Shown here in pieces: positions 2,698 through 31,367 of a stretch of DNA of 32,258 nt. The stretch is from Candidatus Methylomirabilis sp. (GTDB lineage Bacteria; Patescibacteriota; Patescibacteriia; DYHP01). The notes below the pieces were generated by a model, which searched no databases, was not told the DNA's origin, and saw only the letters and a list, made by a program, of their open reading frames with translations. The stretch covers positions 1 through 32,258 of the forward strand of contig DYHP01000004.1 of the NCBI GenBank assembly GCA_020724105.1, written 5' to 3'. Made by a program: the position numbers and the translations under genes. How positions within the stretch are numbered: position 1 is the stretch's first letter; each line of letters begins with the position of its first letter.

Positions 2698-3843
2698 TTA
2701 AATCTCTTCTTCGTGTTCCGGTTGTGATTTGACCCACTCATAAAGCTCTGATATCACTTTTTCGGTGTAATTGGCGAGGTGTAAGTCGTCGGTTAAAATT
2801 TTGGCGTCCGAAGCGTTAAAGCCGTATTCGTCTTGGAATCTCTGGCGTTTGGCAGCGGGCAATTCGGGAATTTTGTTTTTGAGCATCTCTCGAAATTCAA
2901 TCAAATTAAGCGGCGGGGTGTCGGGTTCGGGGAAGTAGCGGTAATCGTGCGATTCTTCCTTGATCCGCTGCTCCTCGGTGATGCCTTTTGTTTCATTCCA
3001 ACCGCGCGTTGATTGATACTTTGGCGGTTTGCCTTTTTCAAAAAGTTTTGTTTGGCGGATGATTTCATACTCCAGGGCGCGTTCGACGGCTTTGAAGGAA
3101 TTAAGATTTTTGATTTCGGTCTTCGGGTTAATAGGTCCTATGGGTCCAATAGGACTTATGGGTCCTAAAGGAGATAAAGAGATGTTGGCGTCAACTCGTA
3201 GATGGCCTTTTTCCATATCGGCGGAGGTAATGCCGAGATAGCGCATTATGAGCCGCAATTCCTGAAGAAAAATTTTCGCTTCCTGCGGGGAGCGGATGTC
3301 GGGCTCAGTAACGATTTCTAAAAGCGGGGTTCCTGAACGATTGAAATCAATGTATGTAGAAGCCATGTGCAAAAGCTTGGCCGCGTCTTCTTCAAGGTGG
3401 ACGCGCGCGAGGCGGATTTTAGTAGAAGCAGATTGACGCTGATTGAGTGCGCTGATTAACGCTGAAGAACTCCCTCCCTTACCCTCCCCCTTTTCAAGGG
3501 GGAGGGATGGGGTGGGGGATATTTCAAGATAACCTTGCCGCCCAATGGGTTTATCAAACTGTGAAATTTGGTAACCTTTGGGCAAGTCGGGGTAAAAATA
3601 ATTTTTGCGGTCGAATTTTGAAAAATCCAAAATCCCGCAATTTAAAGATAGTGCGGCGAGCACCGCATATTCTATCGCTCGCTTGTTTGGAACCGGCAAC
3701 ACGCCCGGATGACCCATGCAAACGGGGCAGATGGTGGTGTTGGGGGATTTGTCTTCGCCGGAATTGTCACAGGCGCAAAACATCTTAGATTTTGTTTTGA
3801 GTTGGACATGGATTTCTAATCCTATTATTGGAATATAATTCAT
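2698..3843 (-). CDS. gatB: Asp/Glu-tRNA amidotransferase subunit B, N-terminal catalytic part (ends early at TAA 2700-2698)
   Basis: MNYIPIIGLEIHVQLKTKSKMFCAC..., RVHLEEDAAKL and EIKNLNSFKAVERALEYEIIRQ are GatB hallmarks. It carries two in-frame repeat insertions (3470-3520 and 3129-3168). Confidence 0.85.
   Translation of the reverse strand: MNYIPIIGLEIHVQLKTKSKMFCACDNSGEDKSPNTTICPVCMGHPGVLPVPNKRAIEYAVLAALSLNCGILDFSKFDRKNYFYPDLPKGYQISQFDKPIGRQGYLEISPTPSLPLEKGEGKGGSSSALISALNQRQSASTKIRLARVHLEEDAAKLLHMASTYIDFNRSGTPLLEIVTEPDIRSPQEAKIFLQELRLIMRYLGITSADMEKGHLRVDANISLSPLGPISPIGPIGPINPKTEIKNLNSFKAVERALEYEIIRQTKLFEKGKPPKYQSTRGWNETKGITEEQRIKEESHDYRYFPEPDTPPLNLIEFREMLKNKIPELPAAKRQRFQDEYGFNASDAKILTDDLHLANYTEKVISELYEWVKSQPEHEEEI
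3129..3168. repeat. 9-mer family, in-frame in gatB
   Basis: TAATAGGTCCTATGGGTCCAATAGGACTTATGGGTCCTAA, translated as LGPISPIGPIGPIN just before the conserved EIKNLNSF block. Confidence 0.8.
3470..3520 (-). repeat. Family C hairpin (in-frame in the gatB N-terminal ORF)
   Basis: CTCCCTCCCTTACCCTCCCCCTTTTCAAGGGGGAGGGATGGGGTGGGGGAT. It translates as ISPTPSLPLEKGEGKGGS. Confidence 0.7.
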
Positions 3844-3870: not shown

Positions 3871-4693
3871 CGGCTTTACTTGCTTGTAAATCTCTAAATA
3901 AAATGACCATGCTGATTATAAACAGCGGAACAAAAAGAGCGTTGATGTAGATCGAGCCGAACAATTTGGCGAAATCCGCAAAGTAAGTCACAATTTTGTC
4001 GGCGCTTACAACGAGATATTCTTGAGTCAGTTCAACAAGATTTATAAAAATTTGCGACACCGCCCAGTTGAACATTGACCATAAAATAGTTGGAACAAAA
4101 ATCCTCAGTAATACCGGCCAGAAACGACCCTTGACCAAGACCTTACTTTGAATAAGAGAGTTCTTAATTCCATTCCCACCGCTTCCACCGTTTCCGCCTC
4201 CGAAGCGGAAACGACCACCTTGGAGGTGGAAATCCAATATTGCGAAGTATATGGCAAAAGCGAACCAGACGCTAAAAATTATGCCGGGCACAATCAAGAG
4301 AATGAGACCGGCAATTTGAATAAGGCTGACAATTACGGCAATTAAAAGCACCTCAAACCACAGAGATAAGGCGGCCTTGAACTCGTTCTTAATAGACACG
4401 GAGCTTGCGGAACTTGACACGATTGCGGGAGCGCTAAAGCGACTTAACTGTTTATCAGCAACTCTAACAAGCACTATGGTTAGAAGTATGGTTAAAATGA
4501 GAACACAAAAACCGACGACAATGCTTACCGCCATGCCGGCAATTCCCGCATATTTCAAAGTATTGAGCAATAAGCCGATGGCGCCGATCGGCACGGTAAT
4601 CAAAAAAATGAGCAAACTCAGTTTCAAATAAGTGCGGAGGTTTTGGCTGTATAAAGTCCAAGTGTTGGAAATGAGATTTGAGAGAGTTATCAT
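3866..4693 (-). CDS. Multi-pass membrane protein, unknown function
   Basis: The ORF has several long hydrophobic segments. I prefer the ATG at 4693 (MITLSNLISNTW) because the track start at 4738 is a TTG inside an intergenic hairpin repeat. A Gly-rich insert (GGRFRFGGGNGGSGGNG) is encoded by hairpin repeats. Confidence 0.6.
   Translation of the reverse strand: MITLSNLISNTWTLYSQNLRTYLKLSLLIFLITVPIGAIGLLLNTLKYAGIAGMAVSIVVGFCVLILTILLTIVLVRVADKQLSRFSAPAIVSSSASSVSIKNEFKAALSLWFEVLLIAVIVSLIQIAGLILLIVPGIIFSVWFAFAIYFAILDFHLQGGRFRFGGGNGGSGGNGIKNSLIQSKVLVKGRFWPVLLRIFVPTILWSMFNWAVSQIFINLVELTQEYLVVSADKIVTYFADFAKLFGSIYINALFVPLFIISMVILFRDLQASKAD
4189..4233 (-). repeat. Family E small hairpins, tandem pair in-frame in the membrane protein
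   Basis: CGTTTCCGC-CTCCGAA-GCGGAAACG followed by CCACCTTGGAGGTGGAAAT. The pair encodes part of the Gly-rich insert. Confidence 0.6.
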
Positions 4694-5538: not shown

Positions 5539-5572
5539 ATAGAGAATTATAACACAAAAATAAAAAAAATCC

Positions 5573-5622
5573 CATAAAACCTATAGGACCTTATAAGACC
5601 TTTAGGACTTATAGGACTAATA
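5573..5622. repeat. 9-mer family, dut-tmk spacer
   Basis: CATAAAACC TATAGGACC TTATAAGAC CTTTAGGAC TTATAGGAC TAATA. It overlaps the dut stop. Confidence 0.8.
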
Positions 5623-6858: not shown

Positions 6859-7284
6859 CTAATCTACAACCTCCAAGCCCATCTGCCTTGCCGTGCCCTC
6901 GATCATCTTCATTGCCGCCTCAACGTTGTCGCAATTGAGGTCGGGCATTTTCTTTTCGGCAATCTCGCGGATTTGGGCGCGGCTAACTTTGCCGATTTTG
7001 TCTTGCGGCGGCTTTTGCGAACCTTTTTCAACGCCGGCCGCCTTTTTTAAAAGTTCGGCCGCCGGAGGGGTCTTTAAAACAAACGAGTAAGTTCTGTCTT
7101 CGTAAACGGCAATCACCACCGGTATAATGTCGTCTCCCAGATTCTTGGTTTTTTCGTTGAATCGGCTGCAGAACTCGGAAATGTTGAGTCCGTGCTGACC
7201 CAGCGCCGGACCGACCGGCGGAGCAGGAGTCGCTTTGCCGGCGGGAATCTGGAGTTTGATATGTGTTTTTACTTTCTTGGGCAT
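6859..7284 (-). CDS. rplK: 50S ribosomal protein L11
   Basis: [35 protein letters not shown]... is canonical L11. Confidence 0.95.
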
Positions 7285-7292
7285 AAATTTCT

Positions 7293-7337
7293 GATAGGAC
7301 TGATAAGTCCAATAAGACCAACGGGTCTCATAGGATT
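7293..7337. repeat. 9-mer family, nusG-rplK spacer
   Basis: GATAGGACTGATAAGTCCAATAAGACCAACGGGTCTCATAGGATT. Confidence 0.75.
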
Positions 7338-8171: not shown

Positions 8172-9389
8172 TCAATAGTCTTTTAGAAACTTCTTGATTT
8201 CCCCCGCCGCCTCTTTGTAATTCTTCACCCACTTAATATTCCGATTTCTTCTAAACCAATTCATTTGGCCTCTTACGTATTTGTGGGTGCGGAACTTGAT
8301 TTTCTGCCCCGCTTCTTCAAGAGTGGTTTTGCCATTCATATAGTCGAGAATTTCTTTGTAACCAATGCCCGATAGGGCGGGGATTTTGGAAATTAGTTTT
8401 ATAGAAATTGGAAATTGGTTATGGAAAGCAGAAACTGAAAATTGGTTTTTTCCATTTTCTATTTTCTGTTTTCTATCACTAATTTCTAATTTCTGAACAG
8501 CTATTTTCTTTTTAAAATAATCAATAAGACATTTCGTTTCCCCCACCAATCCTTGTTTAATCATCTCCTCAACCCTCGCATCTATTCTTTTGTACAACTC
8601 ATGCCTGGGGACTTTAATTCCTATCTGCAAAGTATTAAAGAGCGGTTTTTCGGGTACCCGAAATACATTCTTCTTTTGTAAAGAGGAGTTAATGGGGGTT
8701 ATGTTTTGGCGTTCGGCGGCGTTGTTGTGGCGTTTTTTGGCTTCTACTAAAACTTCCAACGCGCGAATAATGCGCCTCTTATTTTCTAAATCAACGATTT
8801 TAGGCGCCGCCGGGTCTAATTTTTTTAATTGTTTAATTAAAATTTTTAAATCTTTTTTTTCCAATTTTTTTCTAAGCTTCCAGTTTGGAGGAACTTTGGG
8901 AATTGCCAAATTTTCACTTAAGGCGTGGAGATAAAACGCCGTGCCGCCGCAAATGATAGGAATTTTTCCGCGGCAAATTATATCGCGCGCAATTTTGGTT
9001 GCCATTTCTTTGAATTCAGCGACGGAGAAAATCTGGTCGGGTTCAAGAAAACCGATTAAATAATGTTGAATGCCTTTGTATAAACAAGGAGTAGAAGCCA
9101 GTTTTGCGCCATCACTACGCCAATTTACGCCAGCAACCCTCTCATTTTCAGGTACCTGAAAAATATTATGTAAAGGGGAGTTAGCGGGGGTTGTGTTTTG
9201 GCGTTTGGCGGCGTTGTTATGGCGTTTCGTGGCTTCTATGCGCGGGGCGGCTGTGCCGATTTTCATCCCTTTGTAAATTTGCCGCGAGTCGGCGCCGATA
9301 ATTTCGCCGTTAAATTTTTTGGCGATCTTAATAGCGAGTTCAGTCTTGCCGCAACCCGTCGGGCCAGTGATAATAATAATTCTTTTCAT
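8172..9389 (-). CDS. miaA: tRNA dimethylallyltransferase, enlarged by three repeat-derived in-frame inserts
   Basis: MKRIIIITGPTGCGKTELAIKIAKKFNGEIIGADSRQIYKGMKIGTAAP is MiaA-like. At 405 aa it is longer than the roughly 300 aa I recall for typical MiaA; the excess maps to repeats at 9092-9238, 8646-8746 and 8383-8493. Confidence 0.88.
   Translation of the reverse strand: MKRIIIITGPTGCGKTELAIKIAKKFNGEIIGADSRQIYKGMKIGTAAPRIEATKRHNNAAKRQNTTPANSPLHNIFQVPENERVAGVNWRSDGAKLASTPCLYKGIQHYLIGFLEPDQIFSVAEFKEMATKIARDIICRGKIPIICGGTAFYLHALSENLAIPKVPPNWKLRKKLEKKDLKILIKQLKKLDPAAPKIVDLENKRRIIRALEVLVEAKKRHNNAAERQNITPINSSLQKKNVFRVPEKPLFNTLQIGIKVPRHELYKRIDARVEEMIKQGLVGETKCLIDYFKKKIAVQKLEISDRKQKIENGKNQFSVSAFHNQFPISIKLISKIPALSGIGYKEILDYMNGKTTLEEAGQKIKFRTHKYVRGQMNWFRRNRNIKWVKNYKEAAGEIKKFLKDY
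8383..8493 (-). mobile_element. Family B AT-rich palindromic element (in-frame in miaA)
   Basis: 87-bp core at 8402-8488 bounded by TAGAAATT...AATTTCTA. It translates as KLEISDRKQKIENGKNQFSVSAFHNQFPISIKLISKI. Confidence 0.7.
8646..8746 (-). mobile_element. Family A element, diverged right half plus centre (in-frame in miaA)
   Basis: TTTTCGGGTACCCGAAA...GGCGTTGTTGTGGCGTTTTTTGGCTTCTA. It translates as EAKKRHNNAAERQNITPINSSLQKKNVFRVPEKP. Confidence 0.6.
9092..9238 (-). mobile_element. Family A element, copy 3 (in-frame in miaA)
   Basis: Same length (147 bp) and termini, with about 8 substitutions relative to the argS copies. It translates as EATKRHNNAAKRQNTTPANSPLHNIFQVPENERVAGVNWRSDGAKLAST. 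Confidence 0.75.
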
Positions 9390-9447: not shown

Positions 9448-10662
9448 TTATCTATTGATTAAATCGTTTAATATCCGCCAGCGACGTTTTTTCACCTCGC
9501 GCGGAATATCATCTGGGAAATTTTTATAAGCGAACGTTCTGCTTCGCGGCGAGTACATAGAGATATAAGCGATGTTGAAACCGACTTTTTTGCAAAGTTT
9601 TATGGTGTTCTGAAATTGTTTTTCCGTTTCGCCGGGAAAGCCGACGATAATGTCCGTTCCCAACTCAATGCTGGGTTTTGCTTTTCTCACTTTTTTTATG
9701 ATTTTTAAATAATCTTTGGCAGCATATTTCCGATTCATTGTGCGCAAAATTTTATCATCGCCGGATTGAACCGGCAAATGCAGATAATTTACCATTTTTG
9801 GCAATGCCAAAGCTTTTATTGTTTCATCGTTCATATAACGAGGATGAGGGGCGGTGAAGTGAAGTCGTTTTAATCCTTCTAATTGATTCAATTCCCATAA
9901 CAGAGCGGCGAAATGATTTTTAAAAGGATCCTTTTTAGAAAAATTTTCCGGGTCGGGAGCAACCCATTTATTAACAATCTGGCCGAGGAGAATTATTTCT
10001 ATCGCGCCTTCGCGAATCAATTTTTTCGCTTCGCGCAAAATTTCTTTAAGCGGCCTGTTATATTCCCTGCCGCGCGCGTAAGGCACAACGCAATAAGAAC
10101 AAAACTCATTGCATCCAGTTTGAATCGTGAGGTAACGGGAGGTGGCAAAGTCGGATCTGGGCAAGATAGACAAATAGTCGCCTGCGCTGCAAATTTTAGA
10201 AATTGGTTGTTTAGAAATTGGAAATTGGTTATGGAAAATAGAAAGTGGAAATTGGCTTTTGCTATTTTCTATTTTCTGTTTTCTATTACTAATTTCTATT
10301 TTCCATAAAGCTAATTTCTGCGCCAAAGATGGCAATTCATCTATTCTGAAAAAAAGGTCCGCGCCGAAAAGTTTTTTGCGGATTTTCCCATCTTTATCGC
10401 GGCCGACCAGACAGCCGGTAACGGCGATAATTGGTTTAGAGGCCAGCGTTTTTGTAGGGTTGTTATGGCGTCTTGTGGCTTCTACTAACCCGAATACCCT
10501 GTCTTCGGCCGTTTGGCGAACCGAGCAGGAATTTATAACGATAAAATCGGCCGAATTTTTGTCTTTGGCTTTTTTCATCCCCATTTTTTCCAAAACTGCG
10601 GCAATTCTCTCGGAATCATTTTTATTCATCTGACAGCCGTATGTAACTATGCAGTATTTCAT
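9448..10662 (-). CDS. miaB: MiaB-family radical-SAM tRNA methylthiotransferase
   Basis: MKYCIVTYGCQMN start and the CNEFCSYC radical-SAM cluster motif. I prefer the start at 10662 (or 10668), because the track start at 10740 lies within an intergenic hairpin repeat. It carries the in-frame repeat at 10193-10303. Confidence 0.82.
   Translation of the reverse strand: MKYCIVTYGCQMNKNDSERIAAVLEKMGMKKAKDKNSADFIVINSCSVRQTAEDRVFGLVEATRRHNNPTKTLASKPIIAVTGCLVGRDKDGKIRKKLFGADLFFRIDELPSLAQKLALWKIEISNRKQKIENSKSQFPLSIFHNQFPISKQPISKICSAGDYLSILPRSDFATSRYLTIQTGCNEFCSYCVVPYARGREYNRPLKEILREAKKLIREGAIEIILLGQIVNKWVAPDPENFSKKDPFKNHFAALLWELNQLEGLKRLHFTAPHPRYMNDETIKALALPKMVNYLHLPVQSGDDKILRTMNRKYAAKDYLKIIKKVRKAKPSIELGTDIIVGFPGETEKQFQNTIKLCKKVGFNIAYISMYSPRSRTFAYKNFPDDIPREVKKRRWRILNDLINR
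10193..10303 (-). mobile_element. Family B element (in-frame in miaB)
   Basis: 87-bp core at 10212-10298 with the same termini, roughly 85-90% identical by eye to the miaA copy, in the same orientation and frame (KIEISNRKQKIENSKSQFPLSIFHNQFPISKQPISKI). Confidence 0.7.
10457..10484 (-). mobile_element. Family A right-end fragment (in-frame in miaB)
   Basis: GGGTTGTTATGGCGTCTTGTGGCTTCTA matches the element's right terminus. It translates as EATRRHNNP. Confidence 0.45.
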
Positions 10663-11958: not shown

Positions 11959-11998
11959 AATAGGACCAAATAAGTCCGATAGTCCCAATTGGACTTAT
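11959..11998. repeat. 9-mer family at the hup stop
   Basis: AATAGGACCAAATAAGTCCGATAGTCCCAATTGGACTTAT. Confidence 0.75.
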
Positions 11999-12367: not shown

Positions 12368-12616
12368 TTATTTAACTCCTTTAAACAATGGCCCCAGGAC
12401 GTCCAAGAGTATTCCTCCCAAACTGCCAGCCATGCCTAAAAGTGAAATAGCAATTATCGCAAGGCCTATTAGTTTCCAAAAAGTTCTTGTCCCGCCGTAC
12501 GTGCCGAGATGCTGTTCCGCCCAATCGACAGTGCCGAAATTCTGGACTATCCAGTTTGATTTCCAGATGAGCAAAAAACCGGCGATAAGACCCAAAATGC
12601 CTAAAATATACTTCAT
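12368..12616 (-). CDS. Small two-TM membrane protein
   Basis: MKYILGILGLIAGFLLIW... followed by a second hydrophobic helix. No recognisable family. Confidence 0.45.
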   Translation of the reverse strand: MKYILGILGLIAGFLLIWKSNWIVQNFGTVDWAEQHLGTYGGTRTFWKLIGLAIIAISLLGMAGSLGGILLDVLGPLFKGVK

Positions 12617-12633
12617 ACATTTAGTTTCCATAG

Positions 12634-12654
12634 TTTCCACTTCGGAGGTGGAAA
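12634..12654. repeat. Family E hairpin, left boundary of the tRNA-Val block
   Basis: TTTCCACTTCGGAGGTGGAAA. This is a direct repeat of 12988-13007. Confidence 0.65.
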
Positions 12655-12694
12655 TGGGTGATTAGGGACTCGAACCCCAGACCTTCTCGGCTTG
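12655..12694 (-). pseudogene. tRNA 3' half (anticodon-stem 3' strand, variable loop, T-arm, acceptor 3' strand), no partner adjacent
   Basis: Minus-strand read: caagc-CGAGA-AGGTC-TGGGG-TTCGAGT-CCCTA-ATCACCC-A. The T-loop is canonical. There is no D-arm or 5' acceptor before tRNA-Val begins. Confidence 0.55.
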
Positions 12695-12715
12695 CCCGCC
12701 CACCAATCTAGACCG

Positions 12716-12791
12716 TGGTGGGCACTGTAGGACTTGAACCTACGACCCCTTCGGTGTAAACGAAGTGCTCTTGCCGCTGAGCTAAGTGCCC
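12716..12791 (-). tRNA. tRNA-Val (anticodon UAC), CCA encoded
   Basis: Hand-folded: GGGCACT TA GCTC AGCGGCAA GAGC A CTTCG TTTACAC CGAAG GGGTC GTAGG TTCAAGT CCTAC AGTGCCC A CCA. This is a perfect cloverleaf. Confidence 0.9.
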
Positions 12792-12810
12792 AGATTGGTG
12801 GGAGGGTGAA

Positions 12811-12846
12811 TAAACGAGACGCTCTAACCAGCTGAGCTAAGCACTC
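12811..12846 (-). pseudogene. tRNA 5' half (acceptor 5' strand, D-arm, anticodon-stem 5' strand, first 4 loop nt)
   Basis: Minus-strand read: GAGTGCT TA GCTC AGCTGGTTA GAGC G TCTCG TTTA, followed by ttca-CCCTCCCACCA instead of the rest of a tRNA. Confidence 0.55.
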
Positions 12847-12851
12847 GTTCC

Positions 12852-12985
12852 TATACACCTTGAATTACGAAACGCAGTTATACCTGAGCCTGTCGAAGGC
12901 GTCACTGTATAATGAAGCCAAAATTTTACCCTTCGACAGGGCTCAGGGAATAAAATTTTGGCTATTTCGTAATTCAAGGTGTATA
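12852..12985. repeat. 134-bp nested palindrome (MITE-like or structured RNA)
   Basis: Outer 21-bp inverted repeat TATACACCTTGAATTACGAAA / TTTCGTAATTCAAGGTGTATA. Inner 17-bp inverted repeat CCTGAGCCTGTCGAAGG / CCTTCGACAGGGCTCAGG. In addition, GCCAAAATTTT in the inner loop is complementary to AAAATTTTGGC outside it. Confidence 0.6.
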
Positions 12986-12987
12986 TA

Positions 12988-13007
12988 TTTCCACTTCGGA
13001 GTGGGAA
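12988..13007. repeat. Family E hairpin, right boundary of the tRNA-Val block
   Basis: TTTCCACTTCGGAGTGGGAA. The first 14 nt are identical to 12634-12647. Confidence 0.65.
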
Positions 13008-13017
13008 CGATGATTGC

Positions 13018-13104
13018 TGGTGCCCGAGGTGGGATTTGAACCCACACGACCTTGCGGTCACATCCCCCTCAAAGATGCGAGTCTCCCAATTCCTCCACTC
13101 GGGC
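13018..13104 (-). tRNA. tRNA-Leu (anticodon GAG), type II, CCA encoded
   Basis: Hand-folded: GCCCGAG TG GAGG..ACTC G CATCT TTGAGGG GGATG, long variable arm TGACCGCAAGGTCGT, GTGGG TTCAAAT CCCAC CTCGGGC A CCA. Confidence 0.88.
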
Positions 13105-13144
13105 TCACCGAGGATGAACAGTCGTCCCCGAAGCCGAACAAAAA

Positions 13145-14576: not shown

Positions 14577-16571
14577 CTATACTCGTTGAAGCGGTTTTAT
14601 CCCCAACAACTTCATCCCTTGTTCAAACGTTTCGGCTATCTTTTTTATAAATAAAATGCGTTGCGTTCTGACGGATTCCGGGGCGTTAAGGACCGGCGTT
14701 GTTTCATAAAAATCATTAAATTTTTTTGCCAAATCATAAAGGTAAAGCGCCAGGTCTGAAGGGTCGAGATTTTTAGCGGACAACTCTATTGTTTCCTCAT
14801 ATTTGGCAAGATGCATTATCAAATTATTTATAGAAGCCATCTTTACGCCATCACCACGCCAATTTACGCCAGCAACCCTCTCATTTTCAGGTACCTGAAA
14901 AATATTATGTAAGGGGGAGTTGGCGGGGGTTGTGTTTTGGCGTTTGGCGGCGTTGTTATGGCGTTTTTTGGCTTCTACGAGAATGCTCTGTGTTCTGGCA
15001 TAGGCATATTCCAAATAAACGCCTGTTCTGCCCAACAAACTGACCGATTCCTCCGGCCTAAAAAGCAATTCCGATTTTGGGTCAACCTGCAAAATATAAA
15101 ATTTCAGCGCCGCCAAAGCCAAATTTTTAATAGAAGCCATCTTTACGCCATCACCACGCCAATTTACGCCAGCAACCCTCTCATTTTCAGGTACCTGAAA
15201 AATATTATGTAAGGGGGAGTTGGCGGGGGTTGTGTTTTGGCGTTTGGCGGCGTTGTTATGGCGTTTTTTGGCTTCTATAATTAGCATTTTCTCTAATTGT
15301 TCAATCAAATCATCGGCATCCACCCTTGCGCCTTCCCGCGATTTTAATTTTCCTTCGGGCAAAAGAACGAGGCCGTAATTTAAATGGAATAATTTTTCCA
15401 CAAAAGGCGCGCCAACAACTTCAAAAATTTTAAACAATTGCTTGAAATAATAATCCTGTTCGGAAGCGACAATATAAATCATTTTGTCAAATTTAAAATC
15501 CTTCGCTCTCTGAAACGCAAGTTCAATGTCATTTGTGGCGTAAACCGATGTGCCGTCGGCGCGCAACACGACCTTGTTTGCCAAACCGAACTTCGCCAAA
15601 TTCGCGATAATATTGCCTTTTTCGTCTTTTTTCAAAAATTTATTTTTAAAATATTCCGCCGCTCTTTTCTTCGCTTTTTTATAAATTTGACTTTCAAAAT
15701 AAATTTTGTCGAACTTTATGCCCAAATTTTTAAATGTTTCGTCAAACCCCCGAAGCGCCCAGTTGTTCATTTTTTTCCACAACGCGACAGTCGGCTTGTC
15801 GCCCGCCTCCCACTTTTTTAACAATTCGTACGCCTCATTTAGAAGCGACGGATTTTCTTTGGCTTTTTCACCGAATAAAACATAGTACCGCCCGACGAAC
15901 GCGTCGCCTTTTTCGGTTTTAGATTTAAGATTTAAAATTTCAGATTTGAATTTTTCTTCGGATTTCGGACCTGTTCCGTAGCGTCGCGAAGCGTCTGCTT
16001 CGGGGTTTCGAATCTCGGATTTCCGCTGCGAAGCAGTGGCTGGCGTTTCGCCATAACCAAATTTCTGGTAAGCAAGCATTGATTTGGCAATGTGGATCCC
16101 GCGGTCATTGACCAACGAGGTGCGGATAACTTTCGCGCCCCGCAATTCCAATATATTGCTTAACGCCTCGCCCAAAAGACCGTTCCGGACATGACCCAGA
16201 TGAAGCGGTTTGTTGCTGTTGGGAGAAACGTATTCTATTACCACCTTTTTAGATTTAAGATTTAAGTTGTCAGATTTAAGTTGTTTTTTTGTTAAAATTT
16301 CTCCGGCGATCTTTTCTTTATCCAAAATAAAATTTAAATAAGGACCCGCGATTCTGATTTCTTTTATATAAGGGTTCTTGGCGATGAAATCTTCCAATTT
16401 ATTTTTGAGTTCCTCCACCTTAGTTGTAAGTTGTAAACCGTGGCACGGCAGCGCCAAATCGCCCATTTCGGGTTTGGGCGGGTACTCAAAAACATCAGCC
16501 GTTATTGGCGATGGCAAGTGCTTATTAATCTCCTCTGCCAGATTTTGTTTCAGGGTCTTGAGAGAGAACAT
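14577..16571 (-). CDS. argS: Arginine--tRNA ligase carrying four repeat-derived in-frame inserts
   Basis: HLGHVRNG (HIGH-like) motif and a DALR-type C-terminus (YLEYAYARTQSIL ... LYLYDLAKKFNDFYE). 664 aa; roughly 150 aa map to repeats at 14831-14977, 15131-15277, 15917-16041 and 16248-16285. Confidence 0.9.
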   Translation of the reverse strand: MFSLKTLKQNLAEEINKHLPSPITADVFEYPPKPEMGDLALPCHGLQLTTKVEELKNKLEDFIAKNPYIKEIRIAGPYLNFILDKEKIAGEILTKKQLKSDNLNLKSKKVVIEYVSPNSNKPLHLGHVRNGLLGEALSNILELRGAKVIRTSLVNDRGIHIAKSMLAYQKFGYGETPATASQRKSEIRNPEADASRRYGTGPKSEEKFKSEILNLKSKTEKGDAFVGRYYVLFGEKAKENPSLLNEAYELLKKWEAGDKPTVALWKKMNNWALRGFDETFKNLGIKFDKIYFESQIYKKAKKRAAEYFKNKFLKKDEKGNIIANLAKFGLANKVVLRADGTSVYATNDIELAFQRAKDFKFDKMIYIVASEQDYYFKQLFKIFEVVGAPFVEKLFHLNYGLVLLPEGKLKSREGARVDADDLIEQLEKMLIIEAKKRHNNAAKRQNTTPANSPLHNIFQVPENERVAGVNWRGDGVKMASIKNLALAALKFYILQVDPKSELLFRPEESVSLLGRTGVYLEYAYARTQSILVEAKKRHNNAAKRQNTTPANSPLHNIFQVPENERVAGVNWRGDGVKMASINNLIMHLAKYEETIELSAKNLDPSDLALYLYDLAKKFNDFYETTPVLNAPESVRTQRILFIKKIAETFEQGMKLLGIKPLQRV
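14831..14977 (-). mobile_element. Family A 147-bp palindromic element, copy 1 (in-frame in argS)
   Basis: Termini TAGAAGCC...GGCTTCTA, central palindrome TTTTCAGGTACCTGAAAA, and arms that are imperfect inverted copies rich in ACGCC/GGCGT words. It translates as EAKKRHNNAAKRQNTTPANSPLHNIFQVPENERVAGVNWRGDGVKMASI. Confidence 0.75.
15131..15277 (-). mobile_element. Family A element, copy 2 (in-frame in argS)
   Basis: 147/147 nt identical to 14831-14977, exactly 300 bp away, in the same orientation and reading frame. Confidence 0.75.
15917..15950. repeat. AGATTTA heptamer array, in-frame in argS
   Basis: TTTTAGATTTAAGATTTAAAATTTCAGATTTGAA, translated as FKSEILNLKSKT. Confidence 0.7.
16248..16285. 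repeat. AGATTTAAG array, in-frame in argS
   Basis: TTTAGATTTAAGATTTAAGTTGTCAGATTTAAGTTG, translated as QLKSDNLNLKSKK. Confidence 0.7.
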
Positions 16572-16907: not shown

Positions 16908-18434
16908 ATGGAAATCTTAATCGTCTTAATACTGGCCGCGGCCTGCGTCGGCGGTTTTTTGGGTTATTTAATCAGAAGCGAGGTGGCTAAAAGAAGGGCG
17001 GCGAGCGCCGAGGCGCGCGCGGGAAAAATCATAAGCGACGCCAAAACTCGAGCCCAGGAATTTTTAATAAGAACAAAAGAAAAAGGGCTGCAAATCATTG
17101 AGGAAGCCAAGAAAGAAGAAACCGAGAGAAGAAAAACATTGCTTGAACACGAAAAAAGATTGGAAAAAAGAGAATCGCTCTTTGACCAAAAACTTTTGGA
17201 ATCCCAGGAAAAGCAGCAAAAACTGCAGGACAAACTGCGCGAAATCGAGGAGATAAAATTAAAAATAAACCAATTAAAAGACCGAATATTGGGGGAATTG
17301 CAAAGGATTTCATCGCTTAGCGTGGAGGAGGCCAAGCAAGAAATTTTGAAACGCGTGGAAGACGACGTGAAAGACGAAGCGCTTTCAAGAATCAGGAAAC
17401 TTGAACAGACCGCGGCGGAAGAACTTGAAAACAAAACAAAAGAACTGATTGGCGATATCTTGCAAAGAGTGGCGATTTCGCACGCTGTGGAAATCACCAC
17501 CACCAGCGTTAATTTGCCCAACGACGAAATGAAAGGAAGAATTATCGGCAAAGAAGGCAGAAACATCAGGACCATAGAACAATTAACCGGCACCGAACTT
17601 ATTATTGACGAAACGCCGAACACAATAACCGTTTCAAGTTTCTCCCCCATCCGCCGCCAAATCGCCAAACGGGCGCTCGACAAACTCATTGCCGACGGCA
17701 GAATCCAGCCGGCGCGCATTGAAGAAGCGATTGACATCTCCAAAAAAGAATTGGCGATAGAAATTAAAAAAGCCGGCGAAGACACTTTGTATTCTTTGGG
17801 GCTTGAAATCGCGGGATACGACCCAAAGCTCATCCAAATCTTAGGCAGATTGAAATTCAGGACAAGTTACGGACAAAATGTTTTGCAGCACTCAATCGAA
17901 GTGGCGTACTTGTCCGCGCTTTTGGCCCAAGAATTGGGGCTCAACGCTTCATTGGCGAAAAAAGGCGGTTTGTTCCATGACGTCGGCAAGGCGGTTGACC
18001 AGGAAGTGCAGGGAACTCATCCTGAAATCGGCTATAATATTTTGAAAAAATTCGGCCTTCCCGAAGACGTCGCTTATTGCGCCTTGGGACATCATGAAGA
18101 CAAGCCAAAAACCATTGAAGCGATATTGGTGAAAACCGCCGATGCCATATCGGGCGCGAGGCCGGGCGCGCGCAAAGAAACGCTTGAACAATACATCCAA
18201 AGGTTGGAAGATTTGGAAAAAGTCGCCACCGGTTTTTCGGGCGTGGAAAAAGCCTACGCCATCCAAGCCGGCCGAGAAATCAGAGTTTTCGTTAAACCCG
18301 ACCAAATCGACGATTTGTCGGCGTTTAATTTGGCTCGCGACATTGCCAAACAAATAGAAACGGAATTAAGATACCCGGGCGAAATCAAGGTGACGGTCAT
18401 CAGGGAAACCCGCGCCATTGAATACGCGAGATAA
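16908..18434 (+). CDS. rny: Ribonuclease Y
   Basis: N-terminal TM helix, coiled-coil, KH domain (GRIIGKEGRNIRTIE) and HD domain (HSIEVA...LFHDVGKA...GHH). Confidence 0.93.
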   Translation: MEILIVLILAAACVGGFLGYLIRSEVAKRRAASAEARAGKIISDAKTRAQEFLIRTKEKGLQIIEEAKKEETERRKTLLEHEKRLEKRESLFDQKLLESQEKQQKLQDKLREIEEIKLKINQLKDRILGELQRISSLSVEEAKQEILKRVEDDVKDEALSRIRKLEQTAAEELENKTKELIGDILQRVAISHAVEITTTSVNLPNDEMKGRIIGKEGRNIRTIEQLTGTELIIDETPNTITVSSFSPIRRQIAKRALDKLIADGRIQPARIEEAIDISKKELAIEIKKAGEDTLYSLGLEIAGYDPKLIQILGRLKFRTSYGQNVLQHSIEVAYLSALLAQELGLNASLAKKGGLFHDVGKAVDQEVQGTHPEIGYNILKKFGLPEDVAYCALGHHEDKPKTIEAILVKTADAISGARPGARKETLEQYIQRLEDLEKVATGFSGVEKAYAIQAGREIRVFVKPDQIDDLSAFNLARDIAKQIETELRYPGEIKVTVIRETRAIEYAR

Positions 18435-18484
18435 TAAGACCTTTAGGACCTATAGGACCCATTAGTCCGATTGGACTCATAAGA
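18434..18484. repeat. 9-mer family, rny-ymdB spacer
   Basis: ATAAGACCTTTAGGACCTATAGGACCCATTAGTCCGATTGGACTCATAAG. Confidence 0.8.
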
Positions 18485-18492
18485 TTTAATTT

Positions 18493-19326
18493 ATGACCAT
18501 ATTATTCTTCGGCGACATAATGGGCAAAATCGGCCGCAAGGCCGTAGAAAAAATAACGCCCAAGTGGAAAAAGAAATACAAACCCGATGTTATCATCGCC
18601 AACGGCGAAAACCTGGCGCACGGCATTGGCATTACCGAAAAAACGGCGCGCCAAGTTTTTGACGCGGGCGTTGATTTTTTAACCGGCGGCAACCACACTT
18701 TTGATAAAACAAGCGACCTCTATATATGGAACGACGAAGTTTTTGAAAAAAAATTGCTTCGTCCGGCGAACTTAACCCCCCTAATCCCACCCCTTATTTT
18801 AAGGGGGGGCAAGGAGGGATTACCGGGCGAAGGGGTGAAGATAATTGATGTTAAAGGAAATAAATTAATGCTTATCAATCTAATGGGTAGAGTGTTTTTC
18901 AAAGAAGAATACCTGGACCCGTTTAAAATGATGAATGAAATCTTGAAAGACAAGCCCAAAGACATTAAATGCGTTATTTTGGATTTTCACGCCGAAGCGA
19001 CATCGGAAAAAAACGCTTTGGGCTGGTATTTGGACGGGGGAATTTCCGCGATAATAGGCACGCACACGCACATCCCGACAGCCGACGCGAAAATCCTGCC
19101 GCAAGGCGCCGCTTACATCACCGACGTCGGCATGGTCGGCGCCAGAGATTCGGTGCTCGGCGAGAATAAAGATGCCATTATTAATGCTTTTTTGACTGAC
19201 AGCGGATTTAAACATGACATTCCGGAAAAAGGCGAAGCGATAATCGGCGCGGTTTTATTGAAAATCGACGAAAAAACCGGCAAGGCGAAAAAAATTGAGA
19301 GATTGGAAGAGACAATTAAAATTTAA
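18493..19326 (+). CDS. ymdB: YmdB-family metallophosphoesterase (TIGR00282-like)
   Basis: MTILFFGDIMGKIGRKAV...ANGENLAHGIGIT...GGNHTFDK...DFHAEATSEK...GTHTH, with conserved rny-ymdB synteny. Contains a hairpin-derived insert at 18774-18822. Confidence 0.85.
   Translation: MTILFFGDIMGKIGRKAVEKITPKWKKKYKPDVIIANGENLAHGIGITEKTARQVFDAGVDFLTGGNHTFDKTSDLYIWNDEVFEKKLLRPANLTPLIPPLILRGGKEGLPGEGVKIIDVKGNKLMLINLMGRVFFKEEYLDPFKMMNEILKDKPKDIKCVILDFHAEATSEKNALGWYLDGGISAIIGTHTHIPTADAKILPQGAAYITDVGMVGARDSVLGENKDAIINAFLTDSGFKHDIPEKGEAIIGAVLLKIDEKTGKAKKIERLEETIKI
18774..18822 (+). repeat. Family C hairpin (in-frame in ymdB)
   Basis: AACCCCCCTAATCCCACCCCTTATTTTAAGGGGGGGCAAGGAGGGATT. It translates as LTPLIPPLILRGGKEGL. 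Confidence 0.7.
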
Positions 19327-19327
19327 C

Positions 19328-19356
19328 TGGACTTATAAGTCCTATAGGTCCTATAA
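19328..19356. repeat. 9-mer family after the ymdB stop
   Basis: TGGACTTATAAGTCCTATAGGTCCTATAA, just before the terminator hairpin. Confidence 0.75.
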
Positions 19357-19361
19357 AATAA

Positions 19362-19390
19362 ATACCCCCGATAAAATCGGGGGTATTTTA
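19362..19390. terminator. Intrinsic terminator (bidirectional) after ymdB and the small minus-strand ORF
   Basis: ATACCCCCGAT-AAA-ATCGGGGGTAT is a perfect 11-bp stem, followed by TTTA. The left flank is A/T-rich. Confidence 0.75.
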
Positions 19391-22327: not shown

Positions 22328-22400
22328 TCCGCCCAAGAGGAGTCGAACCTCTAACCATCTCCTTAAGAGGGAGCCGCTCTGCCAGTTGAGCTATGGGCGG
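22328..22400 (-). tRNA. tRNA-Lys (anticodon CUU), CCA not encoded
   Basis: Hand-folded: CCGCCCA TA GCTC AACTGGCA GAGC G GCTCC CTCTTAA GGAGA TGGTT AGAGG TTCGACT CCTCT TGGGCGG A. There is one mismatch at the top of the anticodon stem. Confidence 0.8.
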
Positions 22401-22409
22401 TTGTCGGAA

Positions 22410-22440
22410 TGGTGGGAGGGCAAGGTTGAGCTATGGGCGG
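22410..22440 (-). repeat. Duplicated 16-nt 5' end of tRNA-Lys fused to a CCCTCCCACCA motif
   Basis: 22425-22440 is identical to 22385-22400. The minus-strand read is CCGCCCATAGCTCAAC-cttg-CCCTCCCACCA. The same architecture occurs at 12796-12846. Confidence 0.7.
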
Positions 22441-22450
22441 GCAAACAAAA

Positions 22451-22527
22451 ATCCTATAAGTCCTATAGGACCTATAAGTCCTATGTGTCCTATAAGTCCT
22501 ATAAGTCCTATAGGACTTATAGGCCCG
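22451..22527. repeat. Tandem array of about 8 units of the 9-mer TCCTATAAG/TCCTATAGG
   Basis: TCCTATAAG TCCTATAGG ACCTATAAG TCCTATGTG TCCTATAAG TCCTATAAG TCCTATAGG ACTTATAGG. It contains the perfect 24-bp palindrome CTATAAGTCCTATAGGACTTATAG and overlaps the rpoC stop codon. Confidence 0.9.
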
Positions 22528-25500
22528 ATTTATAACCGGTTCCGGTCGGAATCAATCTGCCGATGATGACATTTTCCTTCAAACCTTCAAGTTTGTCAAG
22601 GCGGCCGGTTGTCGCGGCGTTAATCAAAACGCGGGCGGTTTCCTGGAACGAAGCAGCTGATAAAAAGCTCATTGACGAGAGCGAAACGCGACTGATGCCC
22701 ATAAACAAATCCTTGGATGTCGCCTTTTTACCGCCGCTTTTCGCCATTTTCTCGTTCTCTTCTTCATAATACCAGCGCTCGACAATCTCGCCGGGCAACA
22801 TTTCAGTATCTCCCGGATCCTCAATTAACACGCGGGAAAACATTTGTTTTATGATTACCTCGATATGCTTGTCGTTTAATCTCTGACCTTGTGAACAATA
22901 AATTTTTTGGATGTTTTGGAGAATATAGCGTTGCGTCGCTTCCTTGCTTTTGAAATGATAGAGTTCTTGCAAATCCAAACTGCCTTCGGTCAAGGGATCG
23001 CCGGCCGTAACATATTCGCCATCCTTGACATGCAAGACATAGCCGGCCGGAATGATAAATTCCTTGACGATTTTCCCCTGCCAAGTCACTTTGACGATTT
23101 TGTCGCTTAGGGAGACCGCGCCCGATTTTTTGGCAACGACAAACTTACCATCTTCGCGCTCGATTAAAACCTCACCTTCCTTGATTTTCCCGCCGTCTTT
23201 TGCTCTGACTTTGTCTTTTGCGCCGAAGCGGTACGAAAATTCTTCGCTTCCTTCTTTTGACACTTCAACGATTCTCTGGGTTAAAACCGTACCCTTGTGA
23301 GCCTTGTCAATGTCTTTCACCTTGACTTCGCCGTCCGTGTCCGCGGTTATGGCGCGGTTTTTCGGCGGACGCGCTTCAAAAAGTTCTTCAACGCGAGGCA
23401 AACCTTGGGTAATGTCGAGCCCGGCCACGCCGCCGGTATGAAACGTTCTCATGGTAAGCTGAGTGCCTGGCTCGCCGATTGATTGGGCGGCGATAATGCC
23501 GACTGGCGCGCCTTCTTTGACAATCTGGTTATAAGCCAAATCATGGCCGTAGCATTTGGCGCAAACGCCTTTTTGGGATTTACAGCTTAAAACGCTCCTG
23601 ACTTTAGATTCTTTAATCTTGTGAGCGGCGAGTTCGCGGGCGATTTTGTGAGTAATCAACTCCCCCTTTTTCAACAATATTTTATTATTAACATCTTTCA
23701 GGTCTTGGGCTAAGAATCTGCCGACGAGCCTCTCAAAAAAACTCATGCCCAAATCGTTACTTTCTTCGGCGGTAATGAATATGCCGTCAGACGTCCCGCA
23801 ATCGTCCATTCTGATAATTATATCCTGTGAAACATCAACCAAACGCCTGGTTAAATAACCGGATGAAGCAGTGCGGACTGCGGTATCCGCCAAGCCTTTT
23901 CTCGTGCCGTGAGTTGAAATGAAATATTCCAAAACATCCAACCCTTCCTTAAAACTACGCTTGACCGGCAACTCAATAACGTTGCCGGCGGGATTAACCA
24001 CCAAACCCTTCATGCCCATCATCTGGGTGAGCTGCCCCCAGCTGCCGCGCGCCCCGGAATCAATCATGCTGTAGACCGAACCGCCTTTGTCCAATTTTTC
24101 CTTGCAGAGCTGGGTTATTCTGTCTTTGGTGGCGTCCCAAATGCCGATGATTTTGCTGTACTTTTCCTTAAAAGTCAAAAGCCCTTCCTCGTAAAGCGAC
24201 TCAATCCCGGCCACTTGTTTGTTGGCTTCTGTTATTAATTCGTTCTTTTCGGGCAAATCGGGAACCTCTTCCAAACTCCAGGTGTAACCAGATTTGGTGA
24301 TGTAGTAAAAGCCCGTTTCCTTGATGTCGTCCAAAATCTTAGCCGTCGCTTCGGGACCGTAAAATTCAAGACACATCCTGATGATTTCGCCTAACTTTTT
24401 GACATTTAGCGCCTCATTTTTGAAAGGTATTTCGGCCGGCAATCTTTGCCAGAAAATAACGCGGCCGACCGTGGTGTCCGTAATTTTCCCCCTGAATCTC
24501 ACTTTTATCGGTTCGTGCAAGGTAATTTTGCCAAGTTCATAAACCATTAGCGCCTCTTTCTCGTCGGCAAATGATTTGGGCTTGTCGCGATTTTTGCCCC
24601 ATGCTCCCAAAGTCAAAAAGTAACAGCCCCAGGCAATGTCTTTGTTTGGCGTGGCAATAGGCTGGCCCGTGCCCGGCTTTAACAAATTGCGGACGGAAAG
24701 CATGCGTTCGGCGGCCTCTTTATTGGCTTCCTCGGTGAGAGGAACGTGAACAGCCATCTGATCGCCGTCAAAGTCCGCGTTATAAGCAACGCAGACCATC
24801 GGATGGATTTGAATCGCTTTGCCTTCCACAAGCACCGGCTGAAAGGCCTGGATGCCCAAACGATGGAGCGTCGGGGCGCGATTGAGCATCACGTAGGCGT
24901 TCTTGATAATGTCTTCCAAAATATCCCAAACCTCCGGTCTGTCGCTTTCAATGAAACGATTGGCGCTTTTAATGTTGTGGACGAAGTCGGCGAGGATTAA
25001 TTTACTGATAAGAAAAGGCCTGAAAAGCTCAAGCGCCATTCTTTTCGGCAGACCGCATTGGTGCATTTTGAGACTAGGATTGACGACAATGACGCTGCGA
25101 CCGGAGTAATCAACCCGTTTGCCCAAAAGATTTTGGCGGAAACGGCCCTGCTTGCCTTTCAAGATGTCGGCGAGCGACCTTAATTCGTGTTTCGCTCCCG
25201 CGCCTGCCGCTCCTTTGGTTTGGCGGGCGCTGTTGTCAATTAAAGCGTCAACCGCCTCCTGCATCATTCTTCTTTCGTTTCGGCAAATAACCTCTGGCGC
25301 GTTCAACTCCGTCAATCTTTTCAAACGATTGTTTCTGTTTATAATGCGGCGGTATAAATCGTTTAAATCAGAAGTGGCGTAACGTCCGCCGTCAAGCGCC
25401 ACCATGGGCCTTAAATCCGGCGGAATGACGGGCACATTCTTCAAAATCATCCATTCGGGCCTGATGTTTTGTTTTTTTAAACTCTTTAAAAGTTTCAGGC

Positions 25501-31319: not shown

Positions 31320-31364
31320 ATAAGTCCTATAAGTCTCCTATAAGTCCTATAGGTCTTATAGGTT
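31320..31364. repeat. 9-mer family, rnj-trpS spacer
   Basis: ATAAGTCCTATAAGTCTCCTATAAGTCCTATAGGTCTTATAGGTT. Confidence 0.8.
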
Positions 31365-31367
31365 AAA

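Follow-up and report, generated by a model that had tools for sequence, protein, structure and literature searches.

Phages and genomic islands that integrate in tRNA genes restore the 3' end of the tRNA from a copy of their own; these elements extend over kilobases and carry an integrase gene, and they rebuild a hybrid gene, with just the 3' part of the gene duplicated as direct repeats. The intervening sequences of bacterial 23S rRNA are removed by RNase III, and no re-ligation follows. In the account of phage T4 cited here, the gene of a free-standing GIY-YIG homing endonuclease, SegB, lies in a tRNA gene cluster (PMC2330249), and disrupted tRNA genes of archaea include the split genes of Nanoarchaeum and those with the mobile introns of the Thermoproteales (PMC10714607). 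Here we describe a locus in a bacterium of the candidate phyla radiation (CPR) at which an intact tRNA-Val(UAC) gene lies within the remains of another. The locus is part of a 32,258-nt stretch of contig DYHP01000004.1, which we call the window. Our comparisons make it probable that the resident tRNA-Val(UAC) gene was destroyed by a 120-nt non-autonomous mobile cassette that brought its own complete tRNA-Val(UAC). Like those integrating elements, the cassette would strike a tRNA gene and, by providing what it displaces, let the cell survive; unlike them, the window element has only 120 nt (76 nt of these tRNA), no open reading frame (ORF), and inverted instead of direct repeats, and the former gene is given up.

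A syntenic relative, L002, carries an uninterrupted gene (GCGCGCTTAGCTCAGTTGGTTAGAGCGTCTCGTTTACACCGAGAAGGTCTGGGGTTCGAATCCCTAAGCGCGCACCA) at the same spot, between tRNA-Leu(GAG) and the gene for a small membrane protein. The two outer pieces in the window match this gene through the D-arm, anticodon stem, variable loop, and T-arm, and the same comparison set the junctions of the cassette. The break lies after TTTA, and bases 36-37 (CA) are missing relative to L002; when the halves were joined and CA was restored, ARAGORN returned tRNA-Val(TAC) with two mismatched acceptor pairs. A preliminary description of the locus, made from the letters of the window, had proposed one ancestral, possibly Val-type tRNA whose anticodon loop is broken by an insert of about 120 bp, and had suggested looking for an uninterrupted version in relatives; the orthologue in L002 and the effect of restoring CA bear this out. 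The pairing that it had noted between the halves, 5/5 in the anticodon stem (TCTCG/CGAGA) and 5/7 in the acceptor stem, was confirmed, and the 3' half that it had placed at 12689-12655 is present but better delimited as 12690-12655. Aligned in this way, 12846-12811 and 12690-12655 are both parts of what was once a single tRNA-Val(UAC) gene. When metagenomes were scanned for the exact outer 5' half, the sole matches were two unrelated tRNA-Val genes (L082/L083), which are useful only for the expected acceptor partner; in these normal genes GAGTGCT is paired with AGCACTC. Since the window has ATCACCC in its place, the outer gene bears two substitutions in the 3' strand, which we read as decay.

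The outer gene was not called by ARAGORN even with introns of up to 300 nt and lowered thresholds, so that the intron-mode check proposed earlier gave a negative answer. The proposed check with covariance models was answered in part: in 12600-13120, Rfam at E<=10 reported neither half as a partial tRNA, and weak tRNA-like matches (mascRNA, tmRNA T-arm) overlapped the 3' half only. No match to Intron_gpI or to any other intron or ribozyme was obtained for the halves or the insert in that interval, at either the gathering score or E<=10.

The inner tRNA-Val(UAC), predicted earlier at 12791-12716, was recovered by ARAGORN and scored 70.6 bits against Rfam RF00005 (gathering score 29); together with tRNA-Leu(GAG) and tRNA-Lys(CUU), it makes up all ARAGORN and Rfam calls in the region and the window. 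It is presumably the working copy. The 15-bp inverted repeat reported around it is present at 12806-12792 / 12709-12695, with 14/15 positions complementary, and its copies are called arms below. A transcript stem of the arms enclosing the tRNA had been suggested, and the predicted fold of RNA 12850-12650 does pair them round the cloverleaf (-79.7 kcal/mol, z = -4.1), with the junctions in unpaired stretches, of 5 nt (5' side) and 6 nt (3' side), that flank the arm stem. Flanking-stem length was bimodal among the 126 tRNAs of the fetched DNA, at <=8 or >=11, and shuffled flanks reached a maximum of 10. The only promoter-like site of the region lies upstream of tRNA-Leu, at 13206-13179, and the region scan gave none for the inner tRNA itself, so that the inner tRNA is probably transcribed through the outer 5' part; to judge from this arrangement, tRNA-Leu(GAG) probably shares a transcript with the Val locus. 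The features are collected in Table 1.

Table 1. Features of the Val and Lys loci of the window, and ~85-nt cargo copies in other loci (positions refer to the window unless a locus is named)
Feature	Position	Strand	Description
Order at the Val locus		-	tRNA-Leu(GAG), hairpin, 134-nt element, outer 5' part, cassette, outer 3' part, hairpin
tRNA-Leu(GAG), conserved neighbour upstream	13018..13104	-	ARAGORN, Rfam
Near-identical hairpin	12988..13007	-	10 nt after tRNA-Leu(GAG); outside cassette
Outer tRNA-Val(UAC) pseudogene, 5' part	12811..12846	-	tRNA positions 1-35: acceptor GAGTGCT, D-arm, anticodon stem TCTCG, loop TTTA
Whole inserted cassette, 120 nt	12691..12810	-	TTCA + arm + tRNA-Val + cggtct + arm + CAAG
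Upstream arm CCCTCCCACCAATCT	12792..12806	-	15 nt, 14/15 complementary to downstream arm
Inner tRNA-Val(UAC), intact	12716..12791	-	CCA encoded; ARAGORN; Rfam RF00005
Spacer between inner tRNA-Val and downstream arm		-	cggtct
Downstream arm AGATTGGTGGGCGGG	12695..12709	-	15 nt; pairs with upstream arm in RNA fold
Outer tRNA-Val pseudogene, 3' part	12655..12690	-	Positions 38-73: C, CGAGA, AGGTC, T-arm, acceptor ATCACCC, discriminator A; CCA not encoded
Hairpin right after outer Val 3' end	12634..12654	-	Trailer hairpin outside cassette
Eroded cassette directly upstream of tRNA-Lys	22401..22442	-	18-nt remnant (gcCCGCCCATAGCTCAAC) + CTTG + arm CCCTCCCACCATTCC + GACAA
tRNA-Lys(CUU), intact, cargo of eroded cassette	22328..22400	-	ARAGORN; Rfam 63.3 bits
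~85-nt cargo inside 23S rRNA	L014 6761-6871; L041 5045-5157		In L041, helix-25 region, by eye
~85-nt cargo overlapping 5' end of RNase P RNA gene	L062 7150-7263		
~85-nt cargo between tRNAs	L025 7046-7159		

A search for further inverted arm pairs had also been suggested. The arm motif, at <=3 mismatches, is enriched in the window (4 occurrences against 0.41 expected by chance), and scanning one genome per species with the pattern TGCCCNCMCRCCAWW-N70-100-WWTGGYGKGNGGG yielded 73 loci, a number that reflects retrieval by arms and is no frequency. Nearly all belong to Patescibacteria, with matches in Saccharibacteria, Paceibacterota, and Staskawicz-, Lipton-, Yonath-, Giovannoni-, Nealson-, Moran-, Falkow-, and Doudnabacteria; the same scan of viral contigs gave nothing and thus no sign of phage carriage. 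ARAGORN found a tRNA between the arms in 41 of the 73 loci (Arg, Gln, Val, Leu, Thr, Met, Pro, Ala, Gly, or Glu), and Lys from the relatives brings the cargo types to 11. In all but ~1 of the 41, the cassette is flanked by fragments of a tRNA of the same type as its cargo, split mainly in the D-loop or the anticodon loop. We added four cases by hand (window Val, L003 Val, L002 Lys, L004 Lys); among the resulting 45 nested cases the outer anticodon was identical to the inner one in 21 of the 29 that could be read, the others being of the same amino acid, mutated, or misaligned.

The family shares the layout [CTTG-CCCNCNCNCCAA ... tRNA ... TTGGNGNGNGGG-TGAA(G)], with an asymmetric arm pair (CTTG-arm ... 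arm-TGAA(G)) in the flanks and either arm orientation. Cassettes of one orientation mostly occupy the D-loop, where TGG (G18/G19) is replaced, as in ...TCAA|CTTGCCCCCACACCAA..tRNA..TTGGTGTGGGGGTGAAG|ATAGAG...; those of the flipped orientation, to which the window cassette belongs, usually sit in the anticodon loop with 2-4 anticodon bases deleted (...TT|TTCA-arm..tRNA..arm-CAAG|...). A few members lie in the T-arm or elsewhere. In comparisons between genomes, identity of the cassette (arms, spacers, and inner tRNA) was always at least as high as that of the outer genes: it was 99% in L016 and L049, where a 112-nt core of these parts is identical, versus 64% for the outer genes, and the corresponding values are 95% versus 43% for L013/L070 and 92% versus 69% for L015/L059. 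The outer genes range from pristine to badly decayed. With the cassette removed and the missing bases supplied, 22 of 45 could be restored, 13 of them without a stem mismatch, and 23 were too decayed or truncated.

These data bear on the two other options that the preliminary description had raised beside a mobile cassette that disrupts and replaces its target. One could envisage that the outer tRNA-Val is functional, with the insert removed and the halves joined, or held by the arm stem as in Nanoarchaeum, so that two Val tRNAs would come from the locus. In its order of parts (a 5' half and complementary leader, then a complementary trailer and the 3' half) the locus is like archaeal split tRNAs; disrupted archaeal genes likewise have complementary sequences after the 5' part and before the 3' part and are interrupted at D-, anticodon-, and T-loop positions by related, apparently mobile inserts; and 13/45 outer genes have all stems intact after restoration. 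However, bases 36-37 in the window, 2-4 anticodon bases elsewhere, and G18/G19 in the D-loop cases are missing, the window outer acceptor stem has two mismatches, and about half of the family's outer genes (23/45) cannot be restored, the outer Lys of L002 having a broken anticodon stem and that of the window lacking its 3' part. The removal of bases 36-37 by the insertion leaves excision unable to rebuild tRNA-Val, and, because essential bases are deleted at the junctions of other members too, excision cannot yield a working outer tRNA there either. In the predicted fold the junctions lack a bulge-helix-bulge, there being no 3-nt bulges 4 bp apart, and the insert has no group I intron or other such Rfam match. 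The cassette thus differs from the archaeal cases in its bacterial host, the lack of a bulge-helix-bulge, the missing exon bases, the decay of the outer genes, and an insert that is itself a tRNA gene, and we regard an intron or split tRNA as very improbable.

The second option was a scar of local rearrangement, in which a tandem tRNA-Val duplication was followed by deletions, with chance inverted repeats and no mobility. Tandem duplication is frequent for tRNA genes, and inner and outer gene are both Val(UAC), but the same arms and junction signature occur in 73 species around 11 tRNA types, 99-100% identical cassettes lie within outer genes that are just 64% identical, and the inner gene resembles the Val gene of another relative (L004), not the outer gene. 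A scar also fails to account for arms that are enriched, conserved, and co-varying, and it is scarcely credible. The shared cassettes, the decay, and the deleted bases together lead us to reject both options, and the mobile cassette fits the comparative data.

At arm positions left free by the search pattern, Watson-Crick pairing was found in 66/73, 73/73, and 67/73 loci, against 49, 59, and 36 expected if the positions were independent, and compensated variants include CCCTCCC/GGGAGGG, CCCGCCC/GGGCGGG, CCCACCC/GGGTGGG, and CCCTCACGCC/GGCGTGAGGG. By these counts the two arms co-vary to stay complementary, and complementarity itself appears to be under selection. Such pairing might also be expected if the arms were a domesticated processing or regulatory stem of benefit to the host, the outer halves being retained as leader and trailer (promoter, terminator, or decoy for tRNA-targeting nucleases or integrases). 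That no promoter-like site was seen for the inner gene itself, and that its leader would come from the outer 5' part, suits this idea as well. Against it, the outer halves decay and get lost, a plain Val gene suffices in the closest relatives, and the arms are common to nuclease-gene elements and to inserts in other RNA genes; we consider a host-beneficial stem very unlikely.

The same arms surround non-tRNA content in ~30/73 loci. A conserved cargo of ~85 nt, with an invariant ..GNCGAAGNCG.. motif, lies between arms within 23S rRNA and at an RNase P RNA gene (Table 1), and further copies were seen in L011, L017, L019, L036, L063, and L066; it had no match among Rfam families and, the arms apart, no conserved structure. 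Short hairpins take the place between the arms in L054 and L080, and many non-tRNA members end in 4-bp direct repeats (CTTG, CATG, TTTG, CCTG, TTTA). The cassettes thus resemble the intervening sequences of 23S rRNA: both are short, both interrupt the gene of a structural RNA, and in both the ends form a long stem; members of the arm family do occur in 23S rRNA. They differ in that a tRNA in fragments cannot work, so that the stem of the tRNA versions has a replacement tRNA in its loop, and an RNase III step is here a proposal.

In L043 (3925-4219) the space between the arms is filled exactly by an 84-aa GIY-YIG ORF (Pfam E = 5e-17). Arms CCCCCACACCAA/TTGGTGTGGGGG bound this 84-aa, single-domain (UPF0213-like) nuclease gene in 5/5 clusters checked (L043; L084-L107), the four extra homologue clusters (P0069, P0155, P0164, and P0178; 73-82% identical) having been picked only by contig number or length. 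Several of the arm-bounded copies have direct repeats at their ends (TTTA, TATAT), and the closest solved structures are single-domain UPF0213 proteins. Since the tRNA cassettes share their arms with these nuclease-bearing elements, we read them as non-autonomous, cargo-swapped relatives, and from the sequence relationships we infer a role of the nuclease in cassette movement. The resemblance to SegB-type homing genes lies in the linkage of GIY-YIG to tRNA genes, in presence/absence alleles in close relatives with a possible co-conversion tract (L003 versus L002, below), and in a target that is disrupted with its function preserved. In contrast, the Seg proteins have a DNA-binding domain and no inverted-repeat borders, and the cassette preserves function by a whole replacement gene, not by an intergenic site or a self-splicing intron; the window cassette is, in addition, nuclease-free.

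GIY-YIG paralogues adjoin nested or disrupted tRNAs in L078 and L080. On the minus strand of L080 (1450-2350), a tRNA pseudogene has a cargo-less arm hairpin at the usual D-loop site, and ~130 nt downstream an intact tRNA-Ile and a GIY-YIG gene themselves interrupt another tRNA remnant; the locus gives the impression of disruption and replacement in successive layers. On the minus strand of L078 (2400-3200), a tRNA-Trp pseudogene is interrupted after the anticodon by arms of other sequence (CCCCGCCTCC.../...GGGGGCGGGG) with the GCGAAGC cargo, followed by an intact tRNA-Trp, whose 5' leader forms 18 bp with the 3' end, CCA, and trailer of the same gene, and then by the GIY-YIG gene and a nested tRNA-Thr.

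The family also invites comparison with MITEs (miniature inverted-repeat transposable elements). The cassette is 120 nt long and non-coding, has terminal inverted repeats of 12-15 bp and many copies across genomes, and has the same ends as a longer relative that encodes a protein; 4-bp end repeats occur in some non-tRNA members of the family. Unlike a MITE, it has a complete tRNA gene as cargo, a cognate tRNA gene as target, a 2-nt deletion at the junction, and, as far as sequence can tell, a coding relative that is an 84-aa GIY-YIG nuclease and no known transposase. If it were an ordinary MITE, the arms would be terminal inverted repeats for a conventional transposase encoded elsewhere, the GIY-YIG gene would be a passenger, and cognate nesting would follow from a preference for tRNA loops and the death of cells with non-cognate hits. 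The direct repeats that end many non-tRNA members are like target-site duplications, sizes of 100-300 nt and varied cargo are in keeping with this, and so are cassettes that are identical although their outer genes differ, the flanks showing little conversion. However, tRNA-cargo members show small target deletions instead of duplications; in no locus examined was a transposase seen between or beside the arms, whereas the GIY-YIG clusters are arm-bounded in every one checked; and transposase binding sites need no strict arm complementarity. Neutral intergenic tRNA cassettes should, moreover, be common, yet the outer tRNA is absent in only ~1/41. We therefore think an ordinary MITE unlikely.

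The window genes encode the arginyl-tRNA synthetase ArgRS, bactofilin, a DAGK-family protein, a small membrane protein, and HU, and these neighbours place the contig in the Patescibacteria, or CPR; through them the syntenic relatives were recognised. The exact DAGK protein was found in one other contig only, which is short and ends before the Val locus. The Leu-Val order is kept in L002-L008 and L033, and L004 and L005-L008 have a single plain Val gene right after Leu; the Val gene of L004 resembles the inner gene of the window and not the outer. An origin of the inner gene as a diverged local duplicate of the outer was rejected on account of this resemblance and of cassettes common to several species. 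L003 has a Val cassette, different from that of the window, in the D-loop of the same Val gene that L002 has uninterrupted. Their DAGK proteins are 100% identical, the flanks are identical over 58 nt upstream and 54 nt downstream, and the tract from D-loop to T-loop is replaced in L003; these are presence/absence alleles with identical flanks, in relatives and not in the species of the window. In L033, the genome most resembling the window, a cassette downstream of tRNA-Leu(GAG) has junctions identical to those of the window (GTTTA|TTCA...CAAG|CCGAGA) and the same arm type. L033 has a second nested gene (3520-3700), an intact tRNA-Val(GAC) in place of the entire anticodon loop of the outer tRNA; the sole borders of this tRNA-Val are 5 further base pairs (CTCTT/AAGAG) that lengthen the outer anticodon stem, and the outer D-loop has a small hairpin insert. 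Short GC-rich hairpins with 3-4-nt loops are also inserted in outer tRNA remnants of L003 (1395-1440) and L002 (9480-9520, minus strand): GTCCC-TAC-GGGAC, TCTCCC-GCA-GGGAGA, TCCCCC-TTCG-GGGGGA, and TCACCC-GTA-GGGTGA.

The window has a second, eroded case at its tRNA-Lys. An arm motif lies 5 nt upstream of this gene, with a tRNA 5' fragment before the arm whose final 16 nt duplicate the 5' end of tRNA-Lys, and the downstream arm and the outer 3' part are gone. The orthologous loci of L002 and L004 are complete, with an outer Lys 5' part, an arm, an intact tRNA-Lys, an arm, and an outer 3' part.

Hairpins of 20 bp had been described as bracketing the whole block at the Val locus. They exist, and 18/20 positions are identical between 12634-12653 and 12988-13007, but they are not the borders of a unit: each merely lies 0-10 nt past a tRNA 3' end (Leu or outer Val), syntenic relatives with the same Leu-Val order have no hairpins, and a separate 134-nt element lies between them. 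No T-run follows either hairpin, and the terminator scan made no call on 12634..12654. We accordingly rejected the hairpins as limits of a mobile block and read them, from their positions, as putative trailer hairpins of two consecutive tRNA genes. A third hairpin-like match, at 4192-4211, was set aside as probably coincidental; it lies inside a glycine-rich coding stretch. The 134-nt element (12852-12985) has a perfect 21-bp inverted repeat (TATACACCTTGAATTACGAAA) at its ends with TA on either side, contains two more internal inverted repeats, and folds as one long hairpin (-62 kcal/mol); it is missing from the Leu-Val spacer of L002-L008 and found in L001, from the same organism. It is a separate insertion and probably a TA-duplicating MITE.

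Other repeats of the window include a 158-nt palindromic repeat at 9081-9238, 14820-14977, and 15120-15277 (also 8674-8752), with copies 91-99% identical. It lies in frame once in MiaA and twice in ArgRS, has ends TAGAAGCC...GGCTTCTA and centre TTTTCAGGTACCTGAAAA, adds ~50 residues (EAKKRHNNAAKRQNTTPANSPLHNIFQVPENERVAGVNWR...), and resembles Rickettsia palindromic elements. A 127-nt repeat (8383-8509 and 10193-10319; 86% identical) is in frame in MiaA and MiaB and encodes KIEISNRKQKIENSKSQF...-like segments. Most intergenic regions hold arrays of TATAGGACC/TATAAGTCC-like units with a 9-nt period on either strand, at 22440-22529 and ~8 other positions (1936-1989, 3133-3168, 5558-5621, 7278-7331, 11963-11998, 18427-18489, 19310-19372, and 31333-31377).

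Returning to the cassette, we envisage it as a cargo-swapped derivative of the nuclease-bearing element that would be moved in trans. It would carry no promoter, and the inner tRNA would be transcribed from that of the outer gene (or of tRNA-Leu). In the transcript the arm stem would set the inner pre-tRNA apart for cleavage, possibly by an RNase III-type cut as for rRNA intervening sequences, and RNase P and 3' trimming would then act. Nesting in cognate genes only could arise by homing, if a break were repaired with the tRNA halves as homology, or by loop-specific insertion, if cells hit in a non-cognate single-copy tRNA gene were lost. The replaced tract of L003 looks like co-conversion, which, going by the two alleles, may bear on the homing route. 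The outer halves would then be free to decay, as far as two acceptor mismatches here and further at the window tRNA-Lys.

Several observations weigh against this account. The 32-kb window holds no nuclease or other mobility gene, and no GIY-YIG gene in particular. The 84-aa GIY-YIG protein is without a DNA-binding domain, and that it cuts tRNA genes or arms is a supposition. A target-site duplication is absent at the window junction, which shows a 2-nt deletion instead. The inner Val(UAC) bodies of the window and L033 differ despite the shared junctions and arm type, and simple spread of a unit does not explain this. The arm-based pattern under-samples other arm types, such as those of the L033 Val(GAC) and L078 Trp cases, and the first origin of each tRNA-specific cassette is left unexplained. 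The sequences come mostly from metagenome assemblies; recurrence of the architecture in independent assemblies from NCBI, JGI, ENA, and Logan argues against an artefact.

In how it works, the element resembles MITEs, intronless homing cassettes, and rRNA intervening sequences alike, and it lacks at least one defining feature of each. Its assignment to a distinct class of mobile element is tentative. It is conceivable, though we put it somewhat below an even chance, that CPR bacteria harbour a new class of selfish element consisting of a minimal arm-bounded unit: its autonomous form would encode only the 84-aa GIY-YIG nuclease, its tRNA-swapped derivatives would break and replace an essential single-copy tRNA gene at an exposed loop in one step, and the tRNA set would be continually turned over by horizontal 'gene-replacement homing', with the arms serving both as a DNA hairpin or cruciform for recognition by the structure-specific nuclease and as the RNA stem that releases the inner tRNA. 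Our literature search, which was incomplete and yields absence of evidence only, found no description of tRNA-in-tRNA nesting or of arm-bounded GIY-YIG elements in CPR; the nearest item, a report on a meeting, goes no further than the disrupted tRNAs of archaea and the group I/II introns of CPR rRNA.

If this explanation is correct, the tRNA genes of the largest uncultivated bacterial radiation would be targets of dedicated kill-and-replace cassettes and not stable housekeeping loci. This would account for very different tRNA-Val genes at the same locus in close CPR relatives and for the odd fragments beside CPR tRNAs in the output of tRNA finders; in annotation, nested halves would be marked as pseudogenes, and the arm motif would flag replaced genes. 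The cassettes would also provide a route for horizontal exchange of tRNA identity elements and possibly a minimal, nuclease-plus-hairpin mechanism of mobility. Short inserts in 23S rRNA and RNase P RNA would be tied to a mobile element with a candidate nuclease, a link that may bear on the origin of bacterial rRNA intervening sequences.

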